Assembly: GCA_903825105.1 (NCBI GenBank)
Contig: CAIJZI010000009.1
Coordinates: 216-64,215, forward strand
Reading direction: 5' to 3'
Length of the DNA: 64,000 bases
DNA from: an uncultured bacterium
GTDB taxonomy: Bacteria > Patescibacteriota > Minisyncoccia > Phycocordibacterales > Phycocordibacteraceae
The stretch's first letter is position 1. Every line of letters begins with the position of its first letter. The translations under genes and the position numbers were made by a program. Of this stretch, positions 5,357-62,509 are shown one piece after another. The notes under the pieces are model-generated. The model was not told the DNA's origin. It ran no database searches and saw only the letters and a program-made list of their open reading frames with translations.

Positions 5357-5426
5357 GTAAAATATTTTAACATATGTTACTCTGCAATAGGCGACGCACG
5401 CTTTCGCTGAGGCTTCAGCGGGCAAG

Positions 5427-8966: not shown

Positions 8967-9041
8967 ATTTGTAGTATACCGCCTGAGGCTACATAGGCGA
9001 CGCCTTTTCCACTCTTTTTTATCGTGTTATCGTTACGCGAA

Positions 9042-25583: not shown

Positions 25584-25629
25584 ACAAGAAGAGAATAACA
25601 CACGCTTTCACGAACGAGAATCTTTTTTG

Positions 25630-25882
25630 AGCCGAGAGTCGGGATTGAACCGACGACCTCATCCTTCGCTTATACCTCATCTTCTAAGCCACATAATGAG
25701 GGCTAGACTGTATCTTTTCGCTTTTGAGCGAACCCTTGTCAGTCGTTCGGGCGCTTGGGCGCCACGGTCTTGGCTTGTGGAGCTATTAACCGTTATTCGG
25801 GATTCACGATCCTCTCTCGAGAACCGTGGGCAGGATTTTGCGACCCACCATGGATGTGCTCTACCAACTGAGCTATCTCGGC
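25630..25882 (-). tRNA. tRNA-Thr(GGT) interrupted by a ~180-nt intron in the anticodon loop
   Basis: 5' half GCCGAGA-TA-GCTCAGTTGGTAGAGC-A-CATCC-ATGGT and 3' half AA-GGATG-AGGTC-GTCGG-TTCAATC-CCGAC-TCTCGGC are 180 nt apart; spliced loop is ATGGTAA. Confidence 0.6.
25667..25846 (-). ncRNA. Group I-like self-splicing intron (candidate) inside tRNA-Thr(GGT)
   Basis: 5' exon ends in U and intron ends in G; AAGATACAGTCT resembles the group I S element (AAGATATAGTCC), pairing with an upstream GACTG (R/P7-like). Confidence 0.5.
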
Positions 25883-26063
25883 GAAGTGAGGAAGAAAGCG
25901 TGTATGTCTGCATATACACTTTCTTTCCGAACGAGCCGAGGAAAACTTTTTCGAGTCTTCGAGAAACAAGTTTATCGCGGCAATCATCCTCCTATCGCAC
26001 CATTTGAGTCTACGCTATTTCTCTTCCCTTTTCAAAGCCGACGCTTCGGTCGGCTCTCCGCCT

Positions 26064-29824: not shown

Positions 29825-30106
29825 AAATGAGAAGCAATATGACTGTCCTTAGTTATATTCTTCGAATTTGCGAGGCGTATGAGTTTTGCTCATACGACCG
29901 CAGAGCGAAGAACCAAAGTGAAAATGAATTTTCACTTTTTCTGAGCGATGCGGTCGAAAGCCCGTAGGGCTTACAACCGCATTTCCATACTACCAAATTT
30001 CTTAAAATTTTGTTAGTGTTGAGATACAGCTGGTGTATGATTACATACATTCAGCTCGTTCGGAGAACACAAATGTTCGAAGACGCACATTTGTGTTTCT
30101 TCACTC

Positions 30107-30185: not shown

Positions 30186-31979
30186 TTAGTCGTTTGATAT
30201 AAACCCTCCCGCCTGAATCTCCCAGAGTTTTTTATAGAGATTACTTTCTTTCGCGAGGAGCTCGCTGTGCGTACCCGAGACCGCGACTTTCCCCTCTTCC
30301 ATAATAATCAGGCGATCCATATGCATCACCGTCGAGAGGCGGTGCGCGATCACGATAACCGTCTTCCCTTCCATCAAGACTTTCAGCGAATCTTGAATAA
30401 ACTTTTCTGATTCAGAATCGAGACTTGAGGTCGCTTCGTCGAGGACAAGTATCGGCGCATCTTTTAAAATCGCGCGCGCAATCGCGACGCGCTGACGCTC
30501 GCCGCCCGAGAGCTTCACGCCGCGCTCGCCAACCATCGTATTAAACTTTTCTGGATAGCGATCGATAAATTCGTAGCAGTGTGCCTCCTTCGCTGCTTCA
30601 ATCACCTCTTCGTCGGTCGCGCTTTGGCGGCCATAACGAATATTCTCCATAAGCGAGCGGTGAAAGAGTATCGGCTCCTGCGAGACGAAGGCGATCGAGG
30701 TGCGTAAGCTCTCTTGTGTCACTTTTGAAATATCCTGGCTGTCTATCTCTATCGCGCCACTATTTATATTGTACAAACGAAGAAGGAGTTTAACGAGTGT
30801 CGACTTCCCTGCGCCTGAAGAGCCAACAATCGCGACCTTTTCGCGCGGCGCGATATCGAGAGAGAAATGTTCAAGCACTTCGCGATTTTTTTCATCATAA
30901 TGAAAGTTCACTTCGCTAAATGAAATCGCGCCTTCGGTAACCTGAAGAGGCGGAGCATTTGGAACATCCTGAATCCCGTGTGGCAGCTCCATAATGTCGA
31001 ACATCTCGGTTGCATCGGCGAATGCACTGTAGAGCTGATTCATACTTCTCCCAATACCCCAGACGCGATCGATAATGCCAAGAATATAGACCTGAATAAG
31101 CACAATGTCTCCCACTGTCACGACTCCCTTTCCCCACAAGACTACTGCGCCACCAAGAAGGGCTAATTCTATAAAAATAGCCATCAGTCCTTGTATGCTC
31201 GTAATACGCATACTTGCATTCCACGCGCGTCTCGTCGCCACATACCACTGATTAATCAATTTCCCAAACTGCGAACTTTCATACTGAGCTGAAGCAAATG
31301 CGGTTATGGTGGTGTGATTACTTATCGAATCTGAAATGTGCCCAGTGAGCGCGCTGTCTTCTGCTGTCCGAGCTGCGCGCAATACCTGGAACGAGCGCAT
31401 CATGCGAAACTGAATATAGATAAAAACAACTGCCCAGATAAAAAGACCGGCACCAAGCCACACGCTACGAAGCGAAAGTATCCAGACAACACCAACCACA
31501 AAGAGGAGTGTCGGCAGGAAATTGTAAGTAGCAATATCAAACACTTGTTCAAAAGAAGTCGAGTAGCGTGTCGCCCGGCGCGTTAAGGTGCCGGTAAAAT
31601 TGGAGATGAAAAATTCGTGCGCGTGACCAAGCAGCTTATCGTACGCATTTTTATAGAGATCGGTCATTACTTTTGATTCGACCTGTTGACTTGCCAGCGT
31701 ACCCACTCTATCGCCAATCCAGCTCACGAGATTCATCACACCAAACAAAATAAGCGCTACGAAAATTGCTGTCACGACAGTAGCAGAAGGTGTACCTGTC
31801 GAGAGGAGGTTCACGAATTGGCGGAGATAAAGTGGAGCGAATATTCCGGCCACTTGCGCGATTATTATTCCAACAACAGTGGCGGTTAATGCCCACGGGT
31901 AGACAAAAGTCGCTTTGCCATAAGCACGAAGCACGGGCCAAACACGCGCTGGTTTTTTATCTTTTGGAGCTGATTCCAT
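30186..31979 (-). CDS. ABC exporter, fused permease-ATPase (MsbA-like)
   Basis: Six-TM N-terminal domain then a C-terminal NBD (GSSGAGKST, LSGGERQR, LVLDEATS). Confidence 0.9.
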   Translation of the reverse strand: MESAPKDKKPARVWPVLRAYGKATFVYPWALTATVVGIIIAQVAGIFAPLYLRQFVNLLSTGTPSATVVTAIFVALILFGVMNLVSWIGDRVGTLASQQVESKVMTDLYKNAYDKLLGHAHEFFISNFTGTLTRRATRYSTSFEQVFDIATYNFLPTLLFVVGVVWILSLRSVWLGAGLFIWAVVFIYIQFRMMRSFQVLRAARTAEDSALTGHISDSISNHTTITAFASAQYESSQFGKLINQWYVATRRAWNASMRITSIQGLMAIFIELALLGGAVVLWGKGVVTVGDIVLIQVYILGIIDRVWGIGRSMNQLYSAFADATEMFDIMELPHGIQDVPNAPPLQVTEGAISFSEVNFHYDEKNREVLEHFSLDIAPREKVAIVGSSGAGKSTLVKLLLRLYNINSGAIEIDSQDISKVTQESLRTSIAFVSQEPILFHRSLMENIRYGRQSATDEEVIEAAKEAHCYEFIDRYPEKFNTMVGERGVKLSGGERQRVAIARAILKDAPILVLDEATSSLDSESEKFIQDSLKVLMEGKTVIVIAHRLSTVMHMDRLIIMEEGKVAVSGTHSELLAKESNLYKKLWEIQAGGFISND

Positions 31980-43894: not shown

Positions 43895-44013
43895 TGAGTG
43901 AGGAAGAAACGAATGATTGTCCTCAATTATTCTTTCTCTCCGAACGAGCGTTCATATGCCTACATATGGGCGCTGAGTGAGGAAGAACCCAAAAAGATAT
44001 GGGCGCTTCACTT
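43862..44013. repeat. Three tandem copies of the tRNA-Lys 5' end plus leader (atatgggcgctgagtgaggaagaa / atatgggcgcttcac)
   Basis: Direct repeats at 43881-43914, 43962-43990 and 43998-44013. Confidence 0.6.
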
Positions 44014-44080
44014 TAGAATATAGCAGAATGTAGTATGATTTGGAAATCGCCCTACTTCGCGTAAAGCTACGAGGGGCAAA

Positions 44081-61113: not shown

Positions 61114-62370
61114 ATGTCAAAAAGAATTGAACCTGAAATTGAGACATTCGCGCGGATTCGTGTCGTCGGTGTTGGTGGTTCTGGGAAAAATGCGATTAAT
61201 CACATGATTAATTCGAAGGTGCGCGGTGTTGAATTCGTGGCAGTTAATTCTGACGCCCAAGATCTCCACCGTTCTCTCGCGAAGCGTAAGATTCATATTG
61301 GAAAAAATTTGACGCGCGGTCTCGGCACTGGGATGAACCCAGAGCTCGGTCGCAGAGCGGCTGAAGAGACGCGTCAAGAAATCCAAGAGGCTCTTTCAGG
61401 GAGCGATATGGTCTTTATCACCTGCGGACTTGGCGGAGGTACCGGTACAGGAGCGTCATCCGTTGTCGCTAAGATAGCCAAAGAAGTTGGGGCGCTCGTG
61501 ATCGCTGTCGTGACCAAGCCATTTTCATTTGAGGGAGCACAGCGACGCGATATTGCTGAACAAGGACTCGTCGAACTTAAAAAAGAAGTCGACGCTTTTA
61601 TTATCATTCCAAATGATAAACTGCTCGCGATAGTCGATACAAAGACTTCTGCGAAGAACGCATTCGCGATGTGCGACGAGATCCTGCGACAAGCGGTTGA
61701 GGGCGTCTCTGACATCATCACCACTCCGGGAGAAATCAACACCGACTTCAACGATATTAAAGCGATTATGGAAGGCGCGGGCCCTGCTCTTATGGGCATT
61801 GGTATCGCCGAGGGCGACGAGCGCGCGAAAGAGGCTGCACATCAGGCAGTCAATTCCCCTCTCCTCGATGTCTCGATTAGTGGTGCGAGAGGCATTCTCT
61901 TCGTTGTTGCTGGTAGCGAAGATTTGAGTCTTATCGAAGTTCAGGAAGCCGCGAAGGTTATCAACGAATCGGTTGATAAGAACGCGAAGGTTATCTTCGG
62001 TATTATGCGCGATGAGAAATTGAAGAAGGGTCAGGTACGCATTATCGTTATCGCGACCGGGTTCCCTGACGCATTAAATTCTGGACACTCTGGCTCGATA
62101 CTCGAGCGATCACTCTTCTCTATGCCAGCAGAAAAGCGTGTTGAAGAGCGTGGGCATATCTATCATGAAGTTTTAAAACGCGATGATAAAGTTGAAGAAA
62201 AAGTGAAAGCTACAGAGATAAAAGATGAGCCGATTATTACTCCAGTTGAGAAGGATGAACCAATCGTGACGGCGAAGCCGCACAAGCGCGAAGAGGCTCC
62301 AGCAGTCGTCCCAGAAGATGATGAATCGTGGGGCGCGATCCCGGCGTTTTTGCGTCGCCATAAGAAATGA
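61114..62370 (+). CDS. ftsZ: Cell division protein FtsZ
   Basis: Tubulin signature GGGTGTG (CGLGGGTGTGASSV) and a C-terminal variable tail. Confidence 0.95.
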   Translation: MSKRIEPEIETFARIRVVGVGGSGKNAINHMINSKVRGVEFVAVNSDAQDLHRSLAKRKIHIGKNLTRGLGTGMNPELGRRAAEETRQEIQEALSGSDMVFITCGLGGGTGTGASSVVAKIAKEVGALVIAVVTKPFSFEGAQRRDIAEQGLVELKKEVDAFIIIPNDKLLAIVDTKTSAKNAFAMCDEILRQAVEGVSDIITTPGEINTDFNDIKAIMEGAGPALMGIGIAEGDERAKEAAHQAVNSPLLDVSISGARGILFVVAGSEDLSLIEVQEAAKVINESVDKNAKVIFGIMRDEKLKKGQVRIIVIATGFPDALNSGHSGSILERSLFSMPAEKRVEERGHIYHEVLKRDDKVEEKVKATEIKDEPIITPVEKDEPIVTAKPHKREEAPAVVPEDDESWGAIPAFLRRHKK

Positions 62371-62480
62371 TTCTTCGAATCATTTCTTTCTCCCTGCACT
62401 CGTTCGAAAGAATAAAATAAGAATTTCATTCTTTACTCACTCGTTTGGTAGTAAGAAGTAGGTTGTAGAAAAACAGAAAA

Positions 62481-62509
62481 ACGCGGCGACCTTCGGTCAC
62501 CGCGTTTTG
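62481..62509 (+). terminator. Rho-independent terminator of ftsZ
   Basis: acgcggcgacc-ttcg-ggtcaccgcgt followed by TTTT. Confidence 0.7.

Follow-up and report, generated by a model that had tools for sequence, protein, structure and literature searches.

Bacterial precursor tRNAs usually have short, unconserved 5' leaders, which are treated as throw-away sequence. In a 64,000-nt stretch of DNA from an uncultured bacterium of the Patescibacteriota (contig CAIJZI010000009.1 of assembly GCA_903825105.1, referred to as the window), several tRNA genes are preceded by one and the same hairpin-containing motif, which raises the question of what such a leader is and how it came to be there. We find that the motif belongs to a leader cassette, conserved in a large lineage of uncultured bacteria and rebuilt at each tRNA gene to mirror the acceptor stem of that tRNA. 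Its position is best explained if, in Paceibacteria-type Patescibacteria, which belong to the Candidate Phyla Radiation (CPR), a transcription unit can open with the cassette as 5' leader of its first tRNA. Among the Rfam families and in the literature searched, we found no match for this acceptor-copying leader hairpin, which recurs across tRNA families and genomes.

Architecture of the leader cassette

The cassette is a repeated unit of 80–100 nt without an open reading frame (ORF) that lies directly 5' of some tRNA genes. On the tRNA strand, each unit consists of a first hairpin (H1), the linker UCGUUC, a second hairpin (H2) and the tail UCACUUC, after which the tRNA begins at +1. The 5' strand of H1 repeats nt 1–8 of the following tRNA and continues with AU, while its 3' strand is complementary to this sequence and ends in a C that pairs with G1. 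Seven acceptor-like pairs and 3–6 additional pairs give H1 a length of 10–14 bp, and its loop is either of type a, with UAGG within CAUAUG-UAGG-CAUAUG, or of type b, CUUCGCAGACUCG. The 6-nt linker is invariant in 18 of 18 aligned units and is unpaired in both the minimum free energy and the consensus folds. H2 comprises about 18 bp, with the base GGAGAG...CUUUCUUCC (GGAGA/UCUUCC), a covarying middle section and the tip G-NRGA-C, and the 7-nt tail is unpaired and ends at tRNA +1. The orientation and register of the cassette relative to the tRNA are constant in the copies found, and all five units in the window fold into this layout (z-scores from -1.9 to -6.2).

A preliminary description of the window had reported the motif directly upstream of tRNA-Thr(GGU), tRNA-Met and tRNA-Lys, with the mature tRNA 5' end following at once. 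Every element that it described is present at these places, and the full copies end exactly at +1 of the three tRNAs. It had seen the 3' two-thirds of the cassette, but overlooked the tandem units and, upstream, the most distinctive component, hairpin H1 (25935–25981 in the Thr unit). Of the sequences that it called flanks, which are indeed conserved, TCACTTC alone makes up an unpaired tail: CTCGTTCGG starts with the C that closes H1, TCGTTC is the single-stranded linker of 6 nt, and GGA(G/A)A and TTTCTTCC form the paired base of H2.

Motif counts considered both strands of the window (128 kb). Exact copies of CTCGTTCGGARA occur three times, at 25924–25935(-), 30055–30066(+) and 43937–43948(-), each about 45 nt before a tRNA gene (Thr(GGU), Met and Lys, respectively), against an expectation for an exact 12-mer that we estimate at about 0.015. 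If two mismatches are allowed, the count is at chance level (16 versus 17.6 expected). Exact copies of TTCTTCCTCACT were also found three times, and with up to two mismatches this motif is more frequent than expected (18 versus 5.8), a count reached in none of 100 shuffles.

Three apparent resemblances did not hold up. A frame of the type GGAGAG-N5-AUG that runs to a stop at tRNA U8-A9-G10 exists in the consensus, but a small ORF or leader peptide was rejected, as the AUG is AUA, ACG or absent in the Lys unit of the window and in loci L046, L052, L057 and L063, and the frame is broken in others. The likeness of GCUCGUUCGGAGAG to a D-arm is coincidental, as its GC belongs to the 3' strand of H1 and varies with the tRNA. 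The tip of H2 is not an anticodon-like identity mark, since its sequence is uncorrelated with tRNA type.

H1 follows the acceptor stem of its own tRNA

Thirteen distinct acceptor sequences are represented among the units associated with tRNAs for Lys, Arg, Trp, Ala, Met, Thr and Asp. Agreement between the H1 5' strand and the tRNA of the same unit extends to 6.4 of 7 positions, as compared to 3.9 of 7 for other tRNAs. Orthologous tRNA-Lys(CUU) genes in the window and in L052 differ at nt 6, and both strands of H1 follow the change. The identity between H1 and the tRNA stops at nt 8, in that tRNA-Trp and tRNA-Arg(GCG) have C9 while H1 keeps A9. The 3' strand of H1 is not a copy of the 3' strand of the tRNA, as seen from tRNA-Ala, which has G3·U70 where its H1 has G3-C. 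Likewise, H1 is followed by a U in every unit, while the discriminator of the tRNAs at the Lys and Ala units is A73. Both a deleted tRNA gene copy (pseudogene) and a mimic of aminoacyl-tRNA synthetase substrates were rejected, since neither G3·U70 of tRNA-Ala nor the discriminator base is reproduced.

The folding of seven full precursors was compared for the wild-type leader and a leader with a shuffled H1 3' strand. In five of the seven precursors, the probability of the native acceptor stem is 0.82–0.96 when the leader is wild type; after the shuffle it drops to 0.09 or less in those five, and the orphaned copy of nt 1–8 pairs with the 3' acceptor strand of the tRNA at a probability of 0.87–0.99. 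An unsequestered duplicate of the acceptor strand is thus predicted to misfold the precursor, and the complement in H1 is predicted to neutralise it.

Both hairpins covary

We aligned 26 units to a covariance model of the cassette (R1; 85 positions, 27 pairs). Standard pairs account for 90.4% of the cells, as compared to 39–54% if the partners are slid by 1–3 columns, and changes on both sides were observed in 22 of the 27 pairs; none of 500 shuffles reached the observed values. This alignment was fitted to R1, but RNAalifold recovered the same two hairpins from a MAFFT alignment that is independent of the model, with compensated changes in 14 of 24 pairs. Both hairpins covary. The earlier observation that the hairpin sequences differ between loci while the pairing is kept was thereby borne out by the folds, the covariation count and RNAalifold alike.

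A U·C mismatch near the tip of H2 (pair 90:105 of alignment A2) recurs in 13 of the 26 units. This mismatch and a recurrent C·A mismatch in H1, to which we return below, are both found across different tRNAs and may go back to a common source copy or reflect recognition features. Pseudoknots that join the H2 tip to the tail or to the H1 loop can be drawn for some units (GAAG/CUUC, GAGGA/UCCUC), but the tips GCAGAC and GGGGAC have no partner, and there is therefore no covariation for a pseudoknot.

Distribution in Patescibacteria

In the window, R1 scores 77 bits at tRNA-Lys, 72 at tRNA-Met, 63 at tRNA-Thr and 22 at tRNA-Asp, the last being a degenerate unit that corresponds to the looser version of the motif noted previously. 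The model finds nothing before the tRNAs for Trp, Leu(CAA), Gln, Cys, Leu(TAA) and Leu(TAG), in agreement with the reported absence of the module from the first three. A version had also been assigned to the spacer before tRNA-Thr(CGU), where the linker, half of H2 and the tail are present, not as a full module but as a collapsed copy with a score of 7.2 bits.

A search of 185,579 species genomes with the pattern CTCGTTCGGARA-N15-45-TTTCTTCMYY yielded 55 matches. Ten of these are located in metagenome-assembled genomes (MAGs) of Patescibacteria, each ending 5 nt short of a tRNA gene (Arg, Lys, Trp or Ala); the remaining 45, from many phyla, all fail the covariance model. A stricter pattern gave 11 matches in metagenome contigs, six of which abut tRNA genes and one of which (L061) is a tandem array. 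In total, 16 near-consensus copies were identified outside the window in Patescibacteria genomes and metagenome contigs, every one of them ending 5 nt from a tRNA. The preliminary description would have been undone by a motif restricted to the window and unrelated to tRNA elsewhere; other genomes contain it as well, and there too it accompanies tRNA genes. In viral contigs (IMG/VR), nine chance matches to the pattern were obtained, all of which fail the model and none of which is near a tRNA, and a phage origin was rejected.

Among the 26 aligned model matches, 21 are tRNA-proximal units or tandem units directly upstream of one. The exceptions are three units in L061 that are not followed by a tRNA, a unit in L057 that is separated from the tRNA by a promoter, and the distal unit of L037, which is below the threshold. 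A further exception to tRNA adjacency is an orphan copy in the window at 62396. With Rfam 15, only tRNAs were matched in the window at the gathering threshold and E <= 0.05, only noise over the Thr unit at E <= 10, and only a chance match to a miRNA hairpin (E = 0.27) over the L061 units, so that known RNA families and ribozymes were discarded as an explanation. Full-text literature searches retrieved no description of such a leader.

The window itself is bacterial and encodes phosphoenolpyruvate synthase, enolase, CTP synthase and a short IF-2; looking for identical sequences of the phosphoenolpyruvate synthase gave no match. Its ABC transporter (30186–31979) shows 62–68% identity to proteins labelled Kaiserbacteria, Paceibacterota or Parcubacteria, and the gene order Cys / Leu(TAA) / Lys(CTT) / Leu(TAG) at 42.4–44.2 kb is the same in L052, a Paceibacterota MAG.

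Turnover between copies and genomes

Tandem units were observed at several loci: two at tRNA-Asp in the window, one plus a remnant at tRNA-Lys in the window, two each in L037 and L058, and the array in L061. The tRNA-distal unit is always more decayed than the proximal one, and at tRNA-Lys in the window and in L058 the distal unit is of type b and the proximal of type a. The array in L061 (1978–2203(-)) consists of 2.8 copies of a 67-nt cassette variant at 100% identity, followed by a consensus unit, GCGCCTGTA (which corresponds to nt 1–9 of tRNA-Lys), about 150 nt of unrelated sequence and a terminator; no tRNA is located downstream of this array, where Rfam finds nothing. The same private variant (AACGATTG...CATTC) precedes tRNA-Arg(GCG) in L057 and tRNA-Arg(UCU) in L063.

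We also compared the window to three syntenic loci (L067, L070 and L074) that were recovered via the ABC transporter. The cassette is missing from Met, Asp and Thr in L067, present at Met and Thr and collapsed at Asp in L070, and limited to Thr in L074. In a comparison of the window with L070, the two copies of the Thr H1 agree at 47 of 47 nt, the middle of the Thr H2 is entirely different and still paired, and the Met H2 contains a compensatory change from G-C to A-U. The tandem arrays, the decay of distal copies and the presence or absence at orthologous loci therefore indicate turnover by duplication.

Transcription and processing context

Sigma-70-like sites are located upstream of the whole cassette. 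At tRNA-Thr, a consensus scan identified TTGAAA-17 nt-TAGACT (26007–26035(-)), with a predicted start about 19 nt before H1, in a region that is about 80% conserved in L070. At tRNA-Lys, the scan gave TTTCCA-18 nt-TATATT with an upstream TG (44017–44046(-)), the -10 hexamer of which ends 10 nt before G1 of an older Lys unit. An extended -10-like element, TGtTAGTGT (30014–30019(+)), ends 9 nt before H1 of the Met unit, and TGgTAGTGT precedes the tRNA-Met leaders in L067, L070 and L074. Overall, 12 of 19 loci have a TAnnnT hexamer that ends 8–10 nt before G1 of the first unit, eight of them with an upstream TGn. In cassette-free tRNA genes of the same genomes, -10-like hexamers are found 8–23 nt before +1, and their leaders would therefore be only about 1–15 nt long. 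From the position of the promoter-like sites we infer that the cassette is transcribed first, as the leader of the pre-tRNA.

These observations bear on the three roles that had been suggested for the motif. A promoter inside the module was dismissed, since the hexamers are upstream of H1 and none is inside the cassette. An intrinsic terminator or attenuator is contradicted by the A/U-rich base of H2, which is followed by UCACUUC-G and not by a U-tract, and by a terminator scan that flags neither H1 nor H2. A processing determinant, by contrast, is compatible with the exact abutment of the cassette to tRNA +1, where RNase P would probably remove it. CPR genomes encode RNase P RNA, although in diverged form, and two-thirds of these RNAs are without the CCA-binding UGG (PMC8172020).

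Origin and role of the cassette

We favour, with a probability of roughly four in ten, the view that the cassette is a tolerated, self-renewing leader without an ORF, whose hairpins keep it harmless and cleanly removable. A duplicative event at a tRNA 5' end would generate a new unit and with it a second copy of nt 1–8 upstream. A sigma-70-type promoter a few nucleotides before H1 would cause the cassette to be transcribed as a pre-tRNA leader, and both hairpins would fold while emerging from the polymerase. Left free, the copy of nt 1–8 could cause the precursor to misfold by pairing with the 3' acceptor strand of the tRNA; held in H1 by the complement next to it, it would be neutralised. RNase P would cut after the 7-nt single-stranded tail, whereby the cassette is discarded and the tRNA left unharmed. 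We base this view on the constant register, the tRNA-specific H1, the tandem layering, the presence or absence at orthologous loci and the folding test, and consider it more likely than a promoter or an attenuator.

Several observations weigh against such a self-renewing leader. The transcription start, the cleavage by RNase P and the formation of the hairpins in vivo are themselves read from sequence. For the Lys precursor of the window and that of L049, in which H1 contains C·A mismatches, a strand-swapped fold is predicted even for the wild type, and sequestration would therefore have to be kinetic there, with H1 folding first during transcription. A C·A mismatch at position 5 of H1 recurs in 12 of 21 units and weakens the hairpin, without explanation. 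In an RNA that is under selection on a given strand, G·U pairs normally far outnumber A·C, whereas the non-Watson-Crick cells on the tRNA strand comprise 18 G·U and 30 A·C; these counts carry limited weight, since they are not phylogenetically independent and the C·A at position 5 recurs. The preliminary description had taken the covariation as a sign of selection on RNA structure; the conserved structure with its double-sided changes stands, but the excess of A·C weakens a purely RNA-level explanation, and the constraint may act on the DNA. Part of the covariation could thus reflect the maintenance of a DNA-level palindrome or the repeated re-creation of the hairpins. The linker, the base and tip of H2 and the tail are near-invariant across genomes in which the neighbouring ABC transporter is only 62–68% identical, which suggests a specific binding partner that a merely tolerated element would not need; the perfect conservation of the Thr H1 suggests the same. 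A self-renewing origin leaves the near-invariant linker, H2 tip and tail and the conserved Thr H1 unexplained, and the linker, H2 tip and tail may have an additional, beneficial function, such as a standard landing site for RNase P or a protein-binding site. Furthermore, we know of no mechanism that creates a hairpin matched to each target tRNA.

The cassette could instead be a dedicated cis-acting signal for the processing or stability of pre-tRNAs, in which the linker, H2 tip and tail would dock the diverged RNase P of CPR bacteria, another RNase or a protein, H1 would act as a 5'-terminal minihelix resembling the acceptor/T-arm that protects the 5' end or recruits the enzyme, and the turnover would be incidental. 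The near-invariant sequence, the fixed spacing of 7 nt from the H2 base to the cleavage site, the compensatory changes in the orthologous H2 stems of Thr and Met between the window and L070, and the complete conservation of the Thr H1 all fit this proposal, and the scarcity of UGG in CPR RNase P RNAs makes additional contacts with the leader conceivable. We nevertheless regard it as rather unlikely, because most tRNAs in the same genomes manage with cassette-free leaders of about 1–15 nt, because orthologous tRNAs, as in L067, do not have the cassette, because RNase P does not read the acceptor sequence, which leaves a tRNA-specific H1 unexplained, and because there is no excess of G·U. The mismatch spectrum is strand-symmetric, as would be expected if the hairpins instead served mobilisation in single-stranded DNA, as parts of an ORF-less mobile or homing element. 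Such an element would target the first 8 bp of tRNA genes, the repeat of nt 1–8 being a target-site duplication or a guide-matched site, with a transposase, recombinase or endonuclease supplied in trans and the effects on RNA as by-products. This would agree with the direct repeat of nt 1–8 that flanks every unit, the layering of young proximal and old distal units, the tandem copies with 100% identity, the orphan copy away from any tRNA, the presence or absence at orthologous sites and the private variant common to two Arg tRNAs in L057 and L063; the LAGLIDADG ORF that abuts tRNA-Asp in L067 provides another instance of a mobile gene at a tRNA 5' end. We give it slightly less credence than the processing signal, because the cassette has no terminal inverted repeats, no linked transposase at any locus examined and no copies in viral contigs, because a target-specific complement cannot travel in a generic element, and because the units in the window are old and mutually divergent with their hairpins still kept.

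Two further proposals place the function in the leader RNA itself and seem improbable. If RNase P were to cut before H1 as well as before the tRNA, a stable trans-acting RNA of about 80 nt could be released, for example a sponge or an acceptor-stem decoy for a tRNA-binding enzyme or toxin. The size of H1, equal to that of an acceptor/T-arm minihelix (10–14 bp), the conserved single-stranded linker and tail as potential interaction sites, and the retention in L061 of an array followed by a terminator and not by a tRNA would suit such a product. A decoy need not be located exactly at tRNA +1, however, its expression is hypothetical, and H1 lacks features of acceptor identity, with G3·U70 of tRNA-Ala turned into G3-C and the discriminator base always U. 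Even less probable, in our view, is a switch for tRNA maturation, in which a factor or condition decides between two near-isoenergetic pairings, native and strand-swapped, among four segments. This four-segment logic is present in every unit, and the predicted ensembles vary with the mismatches in H1 between a predominantly native and a predominantly swapped state. Against this stand the wasted tRNA in the swapped fold, the dispensability of the cassette at orthologous loci and the lack of an evident ligand or factor; equilibrium predictions also ignore co-transcriptional folding. More speculatively, but with a modest and real chance of being correct, the cassette could represent a new type of self-renewing selfish element directed to tRNA 5' ends, which would use the complement of nt 1–8 as a guide or in the insertion mechanism and owe its survival to its removal by RNase P from every transcript, or an RNase-P-punctuated array that yields small RNAs with tRNA-specific acceptor mimics.

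Comparison with known systems

Structured repeats in bacterial transcripts and minihelix-type substrates of RNase P are already known. Like REP/BIME, Correia, RUP and PATE (IS200/IS605) repeats, the cassette is a short hairpin repeat without an ORF that occurs in several copies per genome, is variably present and would be placed inside transcripts, with effects on RNA ends. Repeats of the REP/MITE type have a fixed sequence and no tie to a gene class, whereas nearly all cassettes abut tRNA +1 in one orientation, with H1 rewritten for each tRNA, so that dispersal irrespective of gene context does not apply. Terminal inverted repeats, as in MITE/REP elements, are not found at the cassette ends: the left end reads AUG-UAGG... 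or AUC-UUCGCAGAC..., to neither of which the right end (...CCUCACUUC) is complementary. A target duplication may be seen in nt 1–8 of the tRNA, which are repeated on both sides of the cassette, but the target-specific complement goes beyond a simple target-site duplication. PATEs of IS200/IS605 have two subterminal hairpins of fixed sequence for TnpA and no target duplication, in contrast to the 13 versions of H1 and the direct repeat of the cassette.

As an acceptor-like helix that is extended to 10–14 bp, H1 also resembles plant mitochondrial t-elements, mascRNA-type structures and the minihelices cleaved by RNase P, and it has the acceptor-like stem of about 11–12 bp with free 5' and 3' flanks that characterises a minihelix. 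However, t-elements and mascRNA mark the ends of non-tRNA transcripts and copy no neighbouring tRNA, whereas H1 is located upstream of a complete tRNA and has no T-loop consensus; cleavage at H1 would be hypothetical. A tie to tRNA genes that leaves the tRNA intact is shared with Ty3 and the Dictyostelium element TRE5, which insert upstream of Pol III genes, and with integrases that restore the tRNA 3' end at attL/attR. The latter spare the tRNA by duplicating the portion of it at the junction, in the bacterial cases the 3' part, as compared to the 5' part in the cassette of about 80 nt; all of these elements are kilobase-sized and have enzymes of their own, unlike the cassette.

Alternative pairings among four complementary segments, as are possible in the cassette, are known from the trp leader, and a leader sequence matched to one tRNA from T-box leaders. 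Those leaders precede synthetase or biosynthetic genes, while the cassette precedes the tRNA gene itself and has no terminator, leader peptide, specifier loop, T-box sequence or Rfam match. The P1 helix of group I introns, formed with the internal guide sequence, is another hairpin that combines a 5' strand from the exon with a complementary guide as 3' strand, like H1. Group I introns have a catalytic core (P3–P9) and a terminal G, whereas the cassette has only about 55 nt after H1, ends in C, is not matched by Intron_gpI, and is followed by a full second copy of the would-be exon, so that nothing is left to splice.

If the cassette is a device for processing or quality control, it offers a view of tRNA maturation in reduced CPR cells with a diverged RNase P; if it is a selfish element targeted to tRNAs, it represents a new safe-haven strategy and possibly a new mechanism for making target-matched hairpins. 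As a tool, the covariance model marks the starts of tRNA transcription units in CPR bacteria and flags tRNA genes overlooked by gene finders, an example being the intron-split tRNA-Thr described below.

Units in the window

The Thr unit as a whole has a folding z-score of -4.1. Its H1 (25935–25981(-)), supported by the fold, the alignment to the covariance model and the comparison with L070, has the acceptor-stem-like helix GCCGCGA...CCUCGGC (the tRNA itself starts with GCCGAGA), further inside a stem of AACUU/AAGUU and, as its tip, UCGA-AGAC-UCGA. It is followed by the linker UCGUUC (25929–25934(-)), unpaired in the folds, by H2 (25890–25928(-)) with the base GGAAAG/CUUUCUUCC and the tip G-CAGA-C, supported by folds and covariation, and by the tail UCACUUC (25883–25889(-)), which ends at tRNA +1 according to both sequence and model. 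The collapsed cassette in the spacer between tRNA-Thr(GGU) and tRNA-Thr(CGU) (25584–25629(-)) consists of CTCGTTCGTG, half of H2 and a tail-like TCTCTTCTTGT; it has no H1, and the upstream tRNA-Thr(GGU) stands in its place.

ARAGORN identified ten tRNA genes in the window. The eleventh, tRNA-Thr(GGU) (25630–25882(-)), was not called because a 180-nt insert splits the gene. As judged from the spliced fold and the alignment of orthologs, exon 1 (25847–25882), the insert (25667–25846) and exon 2 (25630–25666) join such that the insert is located between nt 36 and 37. Without the insert, the gene folds into a perfect cloverleaf, and uninterrupted tRNA-Thr orthologs in L070, L074 and L067 align to the spliced sequence. 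The Rfam models for tRNA and Intron_gpI gave no match to the split gene. The last base of exon 1 is U and that of the insert is G, a pattern shared with group I introns.

The Met unit (30029–30106(+); 71.6 bits, z = -5.65) comprises H1 (30029–30055), the 5' strand of which, GCUGGUGUAU, equals nt 1–9 of tRNA-Met, the linker (30056–30061), H2 with the tip G-AAGA-C (30062–30102) and the tail (30103–30106). The Lys unit (43895–43973(-)), supported by 77.3 bits and its fold, comprises H1 (43948–43973), GCGCCCAUAUG-UAGG-CAUAUGAACGC with two C·A mismatches, the linker (43942–43947), H2 with the tip G-AGGA-C (43902–43941) and the tail (43895–43901). Upstream of it, the sequence reveals the remnant of the older unit, GCGCCCATATCTT...TTCTTCCTCACTCA (43974–44006(-)), in which the linker and H2 have been deleted and which contains the third exact copy of TTCTTCCTCACT (43976–43987).

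Two units precede tRNA-Asp. The proximal, degenerate one (29825–29901(-); 22.4 bits, z = -4.9) has an H1 5' strand, GCGGUCGUAU, that equals nt 1–9 of tRNA-Asp, the linker AAAUUC, the H2 tip AAGGAC and the tail CAUUU. The distal one (29902–29981(-); 18.7 bits, z = -6.2) consists of H1 GCGGUUGU..UCGACCGC, the linker UCGCUC and H2 AAGUGAAAAUUCAUUUUCACUU.

The orphan copy (62396–62443(+); 21.2 bits), recognised from its score and sequence, contains a linker, H2 and tail, has neither an acceptor-copying H1 nor a tRNA, and is associated with the 3' region of an ORF (61114–62370). In the surrounding region (62361–62505(+)), it is preceded by a perfect hairpin, GAAATGATTC-TTCG-GAATCATTTC, which is unrelated to the cassette and overlaps the stop codon of the ORF, and it is followed by about 35 nt and a terminator-like hairpin. 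This region could be a structured 3' untranslated region or a small RNA.

Other leaders and tRNA gene arrangements

Structured leaders other than the cassette were also observed, and they seem to be common at tRNA genes in this lineage. A second conserved leader hairpin, GCCCTACTTCGCGTAAAGCT(A/T)CGA(G/A)GGGC, is located 3–4 nt before tRNA-Leu(TAG) in the window (44046–44077(+)) and before tRNA-Met in L067 (4822–4840), where it replaces the two-hairpin cassette. A third motif is found in the leaders of tRNA-Leu(CAA) and tRNA-Trp in the window (about 5385–5400 and 8995–9010(+)), which share the 11-mer ATAGGCGACGC with GCTGAGGC/GCCTGAGGC nearby. Conserved hairpins also occur in the leaders of tRNA-Ser(TGA) in L020, L057 and L063 (ACGCCTGC...GCAGGCGT) and of tRNA-Gly(CCC) in L012 and L065 (GCCACCAC...GTGGTGGC).

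The ORF of the LAGLIDADG type in L067 (5015–5674), also seen in L068 and L069, is free-standing and located directly 5' of tRNA-Asp, with nt 8–10 of the tRNA (UAG) serving as its stop codon. In L020 (7531–7760), the genes for tRNA-Arg, tRNA-Leu and tRNA-Val follow one another without any spacer or encoded CCA, and a single cut by RNase P would therefore generate the 3' end of one tRNA together with the 5' end of the next.

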